Below, piece after piece: positions 10,986 through 63,929 of a stretch of DNA of 64,000 bases. This stretch comes from Eledone cirrhosa (lineage: Eukaryota): positions 26,846,001-26,910,000 of the forward strand of contig OZ024751.1 in NCBI GenBank assembly GCA_964016885.1, written 5' to 3'. Numbering within the stretch: position 1 is the stretch's first letter; every line of letters starts with the position of its first letter. The position numbers and the translations under genes are program-made. The notes beneath the pieces are model-generated. The model saw only the letters and a list, made by a program, of their open reading frames with translations. It searched no databases and had not been told where the DNA came from.

Positions 10986-12250
10986 TGGTCAGTTTGTTGA
11001 CAGAATTATAAATGGCCTCCAATGTATATTGATAAATCTATTTGATAATTTGTTGTATTGATTAAATATCGTAAACCAGGAGTTAGACTGTCAGTTGTAG
11101 TGGAGTGAAAGATTGAAGTGTTAGAGAAGGGCCGGGATATCTGAAAGACTGGAGGCCCGGCTATGGGTTAACATAACCCAGCTTCTGGCGTTTCAAATTG
11201 TTGTAACTCATCATCAGTTTCTACATCATTGAAATACAATATTCCATCCTTCATAGAAATATTTCCATCTCACGATCCCCGCAGTACACAACAGAACAGA
11301 GCGGACGGGACAGATTCTGTGGATATTATGTTAGCACAGCCTTAAATATCTGATACCATCGTATAAATTTAGATAATTGTAAAGAGAAGTGATTAGAATA
11401 TTTTTGGACAAAGCCACTCTTCAGAACTGAGACAAACCTGAATCCTGAGAACACAGCACTTCTTTTTATGTCATTGTTAGTGGCTAGGGTCGAAGCATGA
11501 CTCGTTCTATTTTGAAATGTTCATTAAATTAGAATTGATCAGATGGAATGGAATATCTGTGTTTCTGCGTGTGTAGAAGGGTGGTGTGTGGTTTTATATG
11601 TGTGGGATGAGTGTAGAAAGATGAAATAGGGTTTAAGATTAGGCTAGAGTGGGTACATTTACATTTTCTTAAACGAAAATTTCATTACTGAATTCTACCT
11701 CGTGGTGAACAGTTGAATTCCACTATTATAGGTTTCTGATGAAGTGTAATAAATAATTATGTATTGCACATGATTGAACAATATATTTTGTAGTCAGCAT
11801 ATGTAGACAATTTATAATAGGCACAGAAACATATGTCAAAACAAATAAATTCCTAATCTCTTCACGCCGACGTTTTATTTTTCTTGGTGCAATACTTGCT
11901 TATATATACACTCCGTAATCTCTTCTGGACCTTTATACCATATTCCCCTGCTTGGATATTATGCTATATGATTCAAAGGAGACCGTCGAGTCAAATTTTC
12001 TGGTAAGCAGCTTTCTTGTTTAACCATTTATTCCGGATATACATAAACAAAACTTTATCTACCTTCGCATATGAAGAACTCATAAGAGTTATATATATAT
12101 ATATATATATATATATATATACATACATATATATATATATATATATGTGAATATAGACATAGAATATTCGAAAATATTCTGTATGTTTATAATAAACATT
12201 TTGAAGACCTAATCGCTATAGAATAGAATACGTCACGTATTACAATTAGA

Positions 12251-12337
12251 TTCTCGATAAAAGCAAGGGAAGTAATCTACGCGTTTCATTCTTCTTAGAA
12301 ATCTTCAGGACTACATATCCAGTGCTTTTATCGAGAA
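12251..12337 (-). ncRNA. Type I hammerhead ribozyme (further minus copies at 12561-12647, 12871-12957, 13181-13267)
   Basis: Reverse complement of 13464-13550. Confidence 0.85.
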
Positions 12338-13463
12338 TGACACAGCTAGAGACTTATAGAATACTTAGCTGTGTACAGGAACTGGTTTGAAAGAGCGGTT
12401 GCCGGTCCGGCAGAAATTAGAAATTGGAATAAATGCTCTGAAATAGCGATATATATGTGAATATAGACATAGAATATTCGAAAATATTCTGTATGTTTAT
12501 AATAAACATTTTGAAGACCTAATCGCTATAGAATAGAATACGTCACGTATTACAATTAGATTCTCGATAAAAGCAAGGGAAGTAATCTACGCGTTTCATT
12601 CTTCTTAGAAATCTTCAGGACTACATATCCAGTGCTTTTATCGAGAATGACACAGCTAGAGACTTATAGAATACTTAGCTGTGTACAGGAACTGGTTTGA
12701 AAGAGCGGTTGCCGGTCCGGCAGAAATTAGAAATTGGAATAAATGCTCTGAAATAGCGATATATATGTGAATATAGACATAGAATATTCGAAAATATTCT
12801 GTATGTTTATAATAAACATTTTGAAGACCTAATCGCTATAGAATAGAATACGTCACGTATTACAATTAGATTCTCGATAAAAGCAAGGGAAGTAATCTAC
12901 GCGTTTCATTCTTCTTAGAAATCTTCAGGACTACATATCCAGTGCTTTTATCGAGAATGACACAGCTAGAGACTTATAGAATACTTAGCTGTGTACAGGA
13001 ACTGGTTTGAAAGAGCGGTTGCCGGTCCGGCAGAAATTAGAAATTGGAATAAATGCTCTGAAATAGCGATATATATGTGAATATAGACATAGAATATTCG
13101 AAAATATTCTGTATGTTTATAATAAACATTTTGAAGACCTAATCGCTATAGAATAGAATACGTCACGTATTACAATTAGATTCTCGATAAAAGCAAGGGA
13201 AGTAATCTACGCGTTTCATTCTTCTTAGAAATCTTCAGGACTACATATCCAGTGCTTTTATCGAGAATGACACAGCTAGAGACTTATAGAATACTTAGCT
13301 GTGAACATACAGAATATTTTCGAATATTCTATGTCTATATTCACATATATATCGCTATTTCAGAGCATTTATTCCAATTTCTAATTTCTGCCGGACCGGC
13401 AACCGCTCTTTCAAACCAGTTCCTGTACACAGCTAAGTATTCTATAAGTCTCTAGCTGTGTCA

Positions 13464-13550
13464 TTCTCGATAAAAGCACTGGATATGTAGTCCTGAAGAT
13501 TTCTAAGAAGAATGAAACGCGTAGATTACTTCCCTTGCTTTTATCGAGAA
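13464..13550 (+). ncRNA. Type I hammerhead ribozyme (further plus copies at 13774-13860, 14084-14170)
   Basis: Distal stem I ttctcgataaaagca/tgcttttatcgagaa (15 bp), internal loop, proximal stem I gtagtc/gattac, core CTGAAGA (13493-13499), stem II ttct-aaga-agaa, GAAA, palindromic stem III ACGCGT, GUA site at 13521-13523. Confidence 0.88.
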
Positions 13551-14341
13551 TCTAATTGTAATACGTGACGTATTCTATTCTATAGCGATTAGGTCTTCAA
13601 AATGTTTATTATAAACATACAGAATATTTTCGAATATTCTATGTCTATATTCACATATATATCGCTATTTCAGAGCATTTATTCCAATTTCTAATTTCTG
13701 CCGGACCGGCAACCGCTCTTTCAAACCAGTTCCTGTACACAGCTAAGTATTCTATAAGTCTCTAGCTGTGTCATTCTCGATAAAAGCACTGGATATGTAG
13801 TCCTGAAGATTTCTAAGAAGAATGAAACGCGTAGATTACTTCCCTTGCTTTTATCGAGAATCTAATTGTAATACGTGACGTATTCTATTCTATAGCGATT
13901 AGGTCTTCAAAATGTTTATTATAAACATACAGAATATTTTCGAATATTCTATGTCTATATTCACATATATATCGCTATTTCAGAGCATTTATTCCAATTT
14001 CTAATTTCTGCCGGACCGGCAACCGCTCTTTCAAACCAGTTCCTGTACACAGCTAAGTATTCTATAAGTCTCTAGCTGTGTCATTCTCGATAAAAGCACT
14101 GGATATGTAGTCCTGAAGATTTCTAAGAAGAATGAAACGCGTAGATTACTTCCCTTGCTTTTATCGAGAATCTAATTGTAATACGTGACGTATTCTATTC
14201 TATAGCGATTAGGTCTTCAAAATGTTTATTATAAACATACAGAATATTTTCGAATATTCTATGTCTATATTCACATATATATCGCTATTTCAGAGCATTT
14301 ATTCCAATATATATATATATATATATATATATATATATATA

Positions 14342-61450: not shown

Positions 61451-62189
61451 CTTATATATATATATTTATATATATATATATATATTTATATGTATTTAGG
61501 AAGAAATTCGTTTTCAAATATAAAAACTGGAGAGGTGTAGGTGAAAGAGTTATATCAGCTCAAATTACGATAATTTATTAAAATAAACTGTACTCAAGGC
61601 TGCACACAATTAAAAATAAAAGTATATGAACCCCTACTGTGCTAGATTATCCACACGTAGAGCGAGTTATCCATTAAAATCTGTTACCAATCACTATTAA
61701 TTATATCATAATTTAATTTACAATTGTTTCATCCTCGTGGGATTCATAGGAATCAACCATTATATAAATAAATACCTCAAGTTCATATTTTAGAACGCAC
61801 AAAAAATCGTAGAAGTTTATTTACAAGCAAACAAACAATCATGCATACATGATGATGACTGAAACTCGACATCAAGTAATGCCATCGCTTGATACTTAAA
61901 CAATGCATCACGGGTGTGGCTTTGTAGTCCTGCTAGGGATTTGCCAGCAATACCATGCACCGCAATCAAATGTCACATATCAAGCGATGCCTGTACTAAA
62001 TCCGATGAAGAAACCACCCGACAGAACGAAAGGAAATGAAAATAAGCAGGAGGAATATGTTGTAAATACACAATAACATTAGGCTTAAAGAGAGAAACAC
62101 AATAACATTGGGCTTAAAGAGAGAAATAGATTTTATGAAACGACCTTTACTACATCTCTCGACTTACATGGTGTAAGGTTAAGTTGTTC

Positions 62190-62943
62190 TATGAACAGAG
62201 TTATCTTGATCACATATATGGCCTTAGTCATCCAAAAGCCGATGTACATAGGCTGTATATCCCAAGGAGAGAAGTTGGAGGGGAGGGAGCTCCGACAACT
62301 GGAAGCTGCATACAAAACAGAAACCATTGGATTAGATAGCTACCTCCACCACACCCGAGATGAACGCTTTATGCCTGTAATCAAGCATGAATGAATTAAG
62401 AAACTACACTCACTAACAACCGAGGTAAAATAGGCAAAAACTGAACATGGAACAAGACATATCCATCTTGTGGGATATGCCTGTGATAACTGACTGATAA
62501 ATCGCTTCCAGCACACCAGATATCATCATAAAAAACAAAACAGATCAGAGATGTAGCCTTATAGATATGTCCATACCAGTTGACAAGAATACATCTATAA
62601 AAGCAATTGAAAAACTGTCAAAATACAAAGACCTGGAAATAGAGATCAACCGGATGTGGAGGAGGACCACAAACACTATCCCTGTGGTAACAGGAGCATA
62701 AGGATTAATACCCAAATCGTCAGACCTGCACCTTAGCGTCCTTCCCTGCAAGATCAGCAAATATGAGCTACAGAAGATCGGGTTACACACATTGTCAGAC
62801 GAGTTCTCTATCTACAATGAAAACCTCTATTGCTCTAGGTTCAAGGCCTGAACCTGACAATAGAGAAACAGAACTGAGCTAAAAGATACAACAACAACAA
62901 CAGCAACAACAGCAACAATAATAATAATAATAATAATAATAAT
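62190..62943 (+). mobile_element. R4/Dong-like non-LTR retrotransposon 3' part (decayed)
   Basis: KADVHRLYIPRRE..RQLEAAYK; PDIIIKNK..CSLIDMSIPVDKN..EKLSKYKDLEIEINRMW..IPVVTGA; (CAA)n/(AAT)n tail. Confidence 0.85.
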
Positions 62944-63719
62944 CCAAGGGTTGAGAATAAGTTGATAACATTTTATTAGTCTTACATACATTTCTACAAA
63001 TGAAATAGAGATGAAAGATAGAGATAGTTCAAAATTCTGTTTCTAGTAAGAAGTTTCTAGTAAACGGAAGTAGATCCATCTACTAGTTATCTGGCTAAAA
63101 CAAAGGTCACCCCCCCCCCCCCTACACTTATTTCATTTGTTTCATAATTTACCCTATAAATCACACCTTGGGGGAATCGCTTCTAGCTGCGGATTGCGGA
63201 AACAAGATTGTATAGCTCATCTTATTATTCTTGTTTATACATACATAAACATACATACATATATATATATATATATATATATATATATGTATATATATAT
63301 ATGTATATATATATATATATATATATATGTATATATATATATGTATATATATATATATATATATATATATATATATATATATGTATATATATATACATAT
63401 ATATATATATATATATATATACATATATATGCATATATATATATATATATATATATATACATATATATATATATATACATATATATATATATACATATAT
63501 ATATATATACATATATATATATATATATATATATATATATATATACATATATATATATATATATACATATATATATATACATATATATATATATATACAT
63601 ATATATATATATATACATATATATATATATATACATATATATATATATATATATATATACATATATATATATACATATATATATACATATATATACATAT
63701 ATATATACATATATATATA

Positions 63720-63929
63720 ACGAAGGAAATGTGGTAAGGAACCAGGTGGACCATAACGAACCAAAGTACTCAATACTTAGGGTAGTTGAGTGGGTAATAG
63801 GAACAAGTAAGACCCCGACGGCTGAGCTCAAGCCGTTTCGACGGCTAATTCTGTACTGGCTAATTCTAGTACAGAATTAGCCGTCGAAACGGCTTGAGCT
63901 CAGCCGTCGGGGTCTTACTTGTTCCTATT
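63720..63929. mobile_element. Fold-back repeat in (TA)n; related pieces near 3375-3405, 36015-36120 and 59785-59835
   Basis: 62-bp perfect arms 63796-63857/63868-63929; shared motif gagctcagccgtcggggtc. Confidence 0.7.

Follow-up and report, generated by a model that had tools for sequence, protein, structure and literature searches.

To date, Penelope-like elements (PLEs) provide the closest parallel to the insertions described here. In the accessible text of PMC3846280, head-to-head copies are the most frequent arrangement, a tail lies on one inverted pseudo-long terminal repeat (pLTR), and antisense self-priming is proposed; that of PMC8557442 describes inverted 5'-truncated copies whose tails may lie at one end or the other, reports that Hydra and Naiad target (TA)n, and calls the origin of tandem and inverted PLE copies an open problem. 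We studied a 64-kb window of the Eledone cirrhosa genome (the whole stretch analysed, G000:C11:26846001-26910000, in an assembly of 3.0 Gb), in which PLEs and shorter units carrying hammerhead ribozymes (HHRs) are inserted into (TA)n as an antisense left arm joined to a sense right arm. New here are the counted pairing of one proximal (A) and one distal (B) outer end in such insertions, arms that are not nested in each other, and a PLE-type footprint on a tandem retrozyme.

As far as the accessible texts describe it, the published PLE layout has in common with ours a head-to-head 5'-truncated inverted copy, partial tandems, an optional tail on one arm, an HHR in the pLTR and a preference for (TA)n; the inverted partial copy, which an earlier note on this window had given as a known PLE feature, was indeed already published (PMC3846280, PMC8557442). 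Our insertions differ in tails of 33-106 nt instead of 30-40 nt, in counted A/B ends (31/33) and in many arms without overlap. For PAc, a Poseidon element of Anolis analysed by target-primed reverse transcription (TPRT) in vitro, the main text of PMC11167929 reports a protein, predicted to be dimeric, that cleaves and extends both strands, and two reverse transcriptase (RT) start sites that bound the tail; the steps after priming are left unvalidated there. PAc is comparable to our elements in the two internal RT start sites, in the cutting and extension of both strands, as we propose here, and in AT-rich targets; it belongs to a different clade, and its two sites are not linked in that main text to the two ends of one insertion. 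Metazoan retrozymes without long terminal repeats (non-LTR retrozymes) share with our arrays tandem units of 170-400 nt, a type I HHR and the lack of an open reading frame (ORF), and the available parts of PMC7229834 and bioRxiv 10.64898/2026.07.22.740005 propose that they are moved by PLEs and derived from pLTRs. Our arrays, known from genomic sequence alone, differ in being two-armed, head-to-head, A/B-ended and located in (TA)n, a PLE-type footprint that the accessible texts do not mention, and the word 'inverted' does not occur in the accessible text of PMC7229834. The parts of PMC12602865 and PMC6962438 at hand added nothing to the comparison, and we found no proposal of two-ended priming for PLEs, or of two-armed retrozyme arrays, in a literature that was mainly non-subscription and without supplements.

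The earlier note had claimed that, wherever polarity can be read from an HHR or a PLE ORF, the left arm is antisense and the right arm sense, with RNA 3' ends facing outwards into (TA)n. This polarity holds for all six elements that it had named, each with (TA)n on its flanks. A purpose-built pattern scan for type I HHR motifs detected 15 within the window, whereas 10 shuffled versions gave none, and intact type I HHRs give the polarity directly in four of the six elements (12147-14308, 14343-14541, 46254-47086 and the PLE at 16735-18305). In the other two, 19021-19250 (where a complete HHR fold with a single core change is visible by eye) and 25157-25495, there is no intact HHR, so the earlier note could not have read their polarity with certainty; it rests on relatives. 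For a census, we scanned six 200-kb blocks at arbitrary positions, one of them adjoining the window (1.2 Mb in total), which held 94 HHRs, against 1 in reversed sequence, at a density of about 65-78 per Mb. Fifteen inter-(TA)n segments bore HHRs on the two strands, and every one of them had the order '-+'; in 13, the two strands carried the same family. For five families of the window, adjacent opposite-strand pieces without an intervening (TA)n were divergent in 28 of 28 cases (5 in the window) and convergent in none, and the three convergent pairs of this five-family census all had (TA)n in between; convergent and divergent polarities are therefore not equally common.

Contact with (TA)n, defined as (TA)5 or longer within 350 nt downstream of the HHR, was found for 73 of 78 HHRs, with the 17-HHR tandem array on C3 collapsed beforehand, and random points matched by block gave an expectation of 18.7; the outward-facing RNA 3' ends and the enrichment over background are thus borne out. 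(TA)n also lies upstream of 49 of the 78, and dense (TA)n tracts occur throughout the window. An outward 3' end at (TA)n is partly expected, because the 3' end of any target-primed insertion touches the target; the distinctive feature is the presence of the second arm. Copies of a long interspersed nuclear element (LINE) from the same blocks, which we take to be R4/Dong-like, end in (TAA)n and had an inverted arm in 0 of 12 cases. For the short HHR family FB200, an antisense arm is present in all 30 top genome loci, the query itself having favoured such copies, and both TA-joined ends and strand-switch joints are present in raw Illumina reads of another sample, so the two-armed layout is not an assembly artefact. 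The polarity is therefore real and genome-wide, and it is mostly the known PLE insertion structure. No target-site duplication (TSD) is visible, as had been noted, and within (TA)n this is uninformative.

The most informative feature, absent from the earlier note, is the asymmetry of the two outer ends. Both ends of each inter-(TA)n segment of the blocks were mapped against a library of HHR 3' regions, with the 17-HHR array skipped; in another end mapping, four weak 'inward' calls (32-39 bits) were taken as noise. Both ends faced outwards in 45 segments and inwards in 2, which map to different references; 21 were mixed, mostly short one-strand pieces, 98 had only one end mapped, outward, 37 only one, inward, and 807 were unmapped. 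Leaving out nine FB230 pairs (palindromic reference) and three that map to different references, 33 of the 45 out/out insertions could be compared, and 31 of these combine one A end with one B end, at distances of 36-106 nt along the RNA (P=6.5e-8 under free choice of ends); the other two are symmetric. All nine of the FB230 pairs set apart are asymmetric as well. In the Hydra family, site A lies 96-99 nt and site B 186-190 nt from the HHR core; site A is AT-rich, and the left position may be taken by either an A or a B end. The 310-nt retrozyme was divergent at 8 of 8 loci and A/B-ended at the five with both ends clean. Nine two-armed insertions lie in the window, of which eight are A/B-ended and one, the PLE at 16735-18305, is B/B. 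The 440-nt family (30 loci mapped, complex) was excluded from the tallies. A spacing equal to that of A and B has been tied to two RT start sites (Frangieh 2024). Inner ends of B arms also seem to pile up at site A (about seven cases), which we do not use in the argument.

If one arm had been copied from the other, their extents would be nested. Scored by hand from the arm maps, 12 of the 31 A/B insertions are non-nested, so that neither arm can be the other's copy, 17 are hairpin-centred or nested, and two were assigned to neither class; the term 'fold-back' in the earlier note thus suits about half of them, many of the others not being true hairpins. Some arm pairs are disjoint, the A arm containing the HHR and the B arm only the distal tail (for example, A -71..97 and B 157..186), and unselected FB230 copies have varied arms that include abutting and disjoint pairs. 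In four of 20 copies fetched (the ORF-bearing L288, L294, L302 and L303), the long arm extends no further than A and the short inverted arm begins at B with tail sequence missing from the long arm; the others are truncated or unclear. In the 310-nt retrozyme, every locus has a separate junction, the inner ends are unrelated at all six measured junctions, with 0-5 nt of junction overlap, and at locus L019 only 25 nt are common to both arms. Where arms overlap, they share source variants more often than shuffled pairs do in two families: 6 variants were mirrored and 5 not in FB200 (shuffle mean 0.4), and 16 and 20, respectively, in FB340 (shuffle mean 3.1). Four FB200 junction classes each contain both alleles of a tail variant. 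Because the arms often do not overlap, the two-armed form is hidden from searches for self-inverted repeats. Two other arrangements were seen in the census: a PLE fold-back with RT-thumb and endonuclease ORF in both arms, A on the left and B on the right (L101, G000:C3:200003451-200005951), and an antisense arm of one HHR family abutting a sense arm of another, both A-ended (L166/L167, G000:C24:10059932-10060354), which may be a chimera of two RNAs or may stem from a nested insertion accompanied by a deletion.

On these grounds, we consider it probable that cDNA synthesis on element RNA is primed from both ends of a cut (TA)n tract and that the two cDNAs are joined in the middle, much as the earlier note had proposed. 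Non-nested arms, A/B ends in 31/33, junction overlaps of 0-5 nt and the ability of a PLE protein to cut and extend both strands in vitro make this the best fit, and by inference we favour it over the published self-priming. A dimeric complex of RT and GIY-YIG endonuclease would cut both (TA)n strands; one 3'-OH would start cDNA synthesis at B and the other at A, where annealing may help since site A is AT-rich. The template of the two cDNAs would be a single RNA or several RNAs from one source locus, and host end-joining and fill-in would complete the insertion. A perfect hairpin would be expected if the two cDNAs terminated at one position, for instance an RNA 5' end, and with tandem or circular templates the inner ends would be unrelated; the derivatives of each PLE family would be moved by that family. 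We lean, with less assurance, towards a broader form of this view, in which PLEs normally integrate by a reaction with two primers, a dimer clamping one RNA at two fixed sites with cDNA made from each cut end, and in which PLE proteins use circular or multimeric RNA to insert retrozymes, as the same footprint would indicate. With two primers and fixed sites, the tail and the inverted arm would be two marks of one event.

The L1 retrotransposon offers a parallel to two-ended priming: in twin priming, as in our model, cDNA forms on both break ends, RNA 3' directions are outward and the central join needs little homology. Our insertions differ in that the two sites are constant within a family, the arms frequently overlap and two-armed copies are common. 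In the L1 case, a model associated with Ostertag and Kazazian 2001, the second priming site is reportedly variable, arms are said to overlap rarely, and there is said to be a poly(A) end and a TSD. The hallmark of twin priming, two cDNAs of which neither is the other's copy, is seen in the 12 non-nested insertions of the 31. The accessible text of bioRxiv 10.1101/2024.12.14.628481 likewise describes L1 cDNAs on both break ends.

Several observations weigh against two-ended priming. The 17 hairpin-centred or nested A/B insertions fit equally well a snap-back, in which a single cDNA primed at B folds back at its 3' end and copies itself until an AT-rich site (A) allows it to anneal to the opposite end of the target. 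If overlapping arms were made on one RNA, this would require strand displacement or two RNAs, and none of 17 variant cells is mirrored in FB230, which counts against a general homogenisation of the arms. The FB200 copy L226 reads '-+-+', and its three junctions, which exceed what two cDNAs alone explain, suggest snap-back or repeated template jumps. Two block insertions have symmetric ends, the window PLE has two B ends, many copies have a single mappable end (the 98 block segments), and the in vitro PLE data come from a Poseidon-clade element, not from Hydra or Neptune. Empty alleles, which bear on the cut geometry, were found for none of 108 elements, nor in reads or contigs, which spanned no locus; apparent matches proved to be element-internal or low-complexity sequence. 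The snap-back also accounts for perfect hairpins with tiny loops, mirrored variants and AT-rich A ends as well as for L226, and it may act in a subset of insertions. It is unable to give disjoint arms or an A arm that is longer or bears the ORF (12/31; the four ORF copies; L019 and L009; several FB230), and none of the six measured 310-nt junctions is a hairpin; non-nested arms exclude it as the general route, and we regard it as an unlikely explanation overall.

The published reading of head-to-head palindromes (PMC3846280, in its Discussion) has the head-to-head form made before integration, by antisense-transcript self-priming (Arkhipova 2013), to which we add whole copying of a fold-back master. 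Inherited junctions are then predicted, and they are seen in one class only: a homogeneous FB200 junction class (8 of 28) with one tail allele, which looks as if copied whole from such a master and is a further point against two-ended priming. The near-fixed centre in the top genome hits of FB200, FB230 and FB340 would also suit this explanation, and we rejected that centre as evidence since it is partly query bias and unselected FB230 arms are varied and disjoint. Junction class assorts independently of the tail allele in four FB200 classes, each 310-nt locus has its own junction, and a sense template suffices for TPRT in vitro, according to the main text of PMC11167929; formation before integration thus seems to us quite improbable. 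That the copies are DNA elements at TA resembling miniature inverted-repeat transposable elements (MITEs), or that they arose, independently of retrotransposition, by breakage and fold-back repair at (TA)n, is suggested by their being short, high-copy, palindromic and TA-flanked and by a few inverted flanks centred on (TA)n (as at 29917-30034). The ends are asymmetric in 31/33 and are not terminal inverted repeats, length and 5' extent vary, the sequences run on into PLE ORFs, the junctions show no folding back of host DNA, and the LINE copies of the same blocks have no inverted arm, so we give such an origin very little credence. Hardly any weight at all falls on fold-back chimeras of long reads as the source of the inversions: the 99-100% palindromic identity of some young copies would fit them, yet the ends are family-fixed and unequal, old copies are diverged, arms are non-nested, and the strand-switch joints recur in the Illumina reads at the family level, no single locus being spanned.

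Coding partners of the families were sought in the fetched DNA around the loci. Two copies, L287 and L288, have single ORFs of 743 and 699 aa with RT motifs followed by a C-terminal GIY-YIG-type endonuclease. L287 has the motifs RWR (not RWK), DKT, CNCRNKSNC, CSLC and CKH and, read by eye, no CCHH; the accessible text of PMC8557442 defines the Hydra clade by an RWK-type motif, DKT, a CxCx5C linker, CxxC and CxH near the C-terminus and no CCHH. By its motifs, the window PLE at 16735-18305 is assigned as Hydra-like, and its relatives combine a canonical HHR with insertion into (TA)n. Pfam gave no significant match for the Hydra-like ORF. Its relatives come from a protein search in which 150 of 49,077 candidates were scored; in a homologue search with the window PLE protein, the only named match was from a cephalopod, and the repeats of the window have an apparently octopus-like look. 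A Hydra-like endonuclease precedes FB230 sequence in 4 of 12 longer copies, and also at L208 and L297; FB210 relatives likewise lie downstream of one. FB340 (25157-25495) continues upstream into a GIY-YIG domain (PF01541, E=6.8e-7), and in 10 of 12 loci the same endonuclease, with linker and CCHH cysteines, lies 1 kb upstream on the same strand; an RT was not seen in the same copy, and the parent is probably a Neptune/Nematis-type PLE. The short HHR copies at 19563, 38098, 30044, 19021 and 63720 match Hydra-like 3' ends and that at 25157 a Neptune-type one. To judge from their sequence, then, most of the short 'non-coding HHR RNAs' of the earlier note are truncated PLE 3' ends, and the single PLE machinery that it had proposed gives way to several that appear to share one layout, at least Hydra-like and Neptune-like. 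The 310-nt unit does lack an ORF and, with tandem units in the 170-400 nt range and a type I HHR in each, would fit a non-LTR retrozyme; among the 23 runs listed for a look at its RNA, none consisted of raw RNA reads of this species, and three (X4, X10 and X19) are contigs of uncertain type. In the fetched DNA, we found no coding partner for it, for the 440-nt tandem units or for FB200, and no endonuclease upstream of the 310-nt unit without intervening (TA)n. FB210, FB230 and FB340 are high-copy and keep HHR-like stems with altered catalytic cores, which is consistent with cleavage not being needed for insertion.

Some relatives have other forms. Six single-armed copies of the Hydra 3' region (L033, L035, L046, L048, L055 and L059), about 270 nt long (L033 is 324 nt, hairpin included), have a fixed 5' end that joins (TA)n directly, which points to a short RNA that starts at a defined position. 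A large divergent retrozyme array (L108-L109, G000:C3:200075966-200084603) has 3 units on the minus and 14 on the plus strand, about 470-510 nt each and holding their own (TA)n, and at G000:C3:142260102-142266101 an FB230-containing unit occurs three times at about 2.8-kb spacing, as a tandem duplication. A 1029-aa open frame (L093-L094, G000:C11:27038487-27041573) looks like a large host-gene exon, and the lone HHR call within it is probably a false positive.

In the window itself, the 310-nt tandem retrozyme (12147-14308) consists of an antisense arm (12147-13303, about 3.7 units with four HHRs, outer end at site A, internal ATATATAT) and a sense arm (13304-14308, about 3.2 units with three HHRs, outer end at site B, 34-nt tail at 14275-14308), so that four minus-strand HHRs precede three on the plus strand. 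It is followed by an FB200 insertion, with an antisense arm at 14343-14405 (A end) and a sense arm at 14406-14541 (HHR core at 14414, 72-nt tail at 14470-14541, B end); both arms carry an HHR, as do those of the 440-nt family insertion at 46254-47086, with 1.2 antisense units at 46254-46768 (HHR core at 46386, A end) and a sense arm at 46771-47086 (HHR near 46879, 74-nt tail, B end). The Hydra-like PLE begins with a 68-nt inverted arm (16735-16802, minus strand, B end) and continues on the plus strand with a 5'-truncated, broken ORF (16800-17940), read as an RT thumb region (16800-17348) and a CxCx5C linker with a GIY-YIG-type endonuclease (17419-17940). Its 3' region (17995-18305) holds a 45-nt inverted piece (17995-18039), an HHR (18114-18164), an A site near 18215 and the B end at 18305; given the inverted piece, the element looks composite. 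FB230 (19021-19250) has an antisense arm at 19021-19089 (A end) and a sense arm at 19090-19250 with an HHR relic and an 86-nt tail (B end), and FB340 (25157-25495) an antisense arm to about 25304 (A end) and a sense arm with a tail of about 61 nt (B end). The layout given in the earlier note stands for these elements, and two of its spans run on through the tails, 14342-14469 to 14541 and 19021-19164 to 19250.

Three additional two-armed insertions lie in the window: a Hydra-family one at 19563-19847, in which an antisense arm with HHR (A end) abuts a tail-only sense arm (B end) without overlap; one with an HHR at 37010-37274, its tail on the left antisense arm and its right arm sense; and FB210 at 63720-63929, with an antisense arm and 76-nt tail at 63720-63862, a sense arm at 63868-63929 and a degenerate HHR fold seen by eye. 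Single-armed HHR copies on the plus strand occur at 30044-30205 (running into (TA)n with its 3' end and akin to the 3' untranslated region of a Hydra-like PLE) and 38098-38248 (Hydra family, A end into (TA)n). There are also a diverged FB200 relative with an antisense arm only (18789-18990), a diverged FB340 relative with hairpin and tail (28891-29049), a decayed Hydra-like endonuclease on the minus strand (48326-48691) and a broken RT fragment with a Neptune-like motif, read by eye, that ends abruptly at (TA)n (59150-59741). Short inverted flanks surround a central (TA)n tract at 29917-30034 and 58160-58227 and are convergent. Four unrelated minisatellite arrays with units of about 40-50 nt (21440-23360, 38820-39750, 42980-44100 and 49010-50440) and a 710-nt segment present twice, inverted, 22 kb apart and 95% identical (30343-31050 and 53427-54130), complete the repeats. 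General-purpose searches were of limited use here: no hammerhead family was among the 150 of 303 Rfam matches listed for the window, microRNA hairpins appeared among its Rfam matches as sub-threshold hits only, minimum-free-energy folding gave the HHR fold no advantage over shuffles for most motifs, and an exact-pattern genome search returned only 14 matches, variant copies escaping such a search.

Two-armed insertions are a large source of short genomic hairpins, which can be mistaken for MITEs or microRNA precursors. The A/B rule and the non-nested arms turn the open question of tandem and inverted PLE copies into a directly testable mechanism. The proposal that PLEs move retrozymes has so far been argued from co-occurrence and sequence likeness; the PLE-type footprint on an ORF-less tandem retrozyme supports such mobilisation at the level of the insertion itself. 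If this reading is true, the retrozyme footprint would be direct genomic evidence for insertion by PLE proteins, at some 10^5 sites in this genome.

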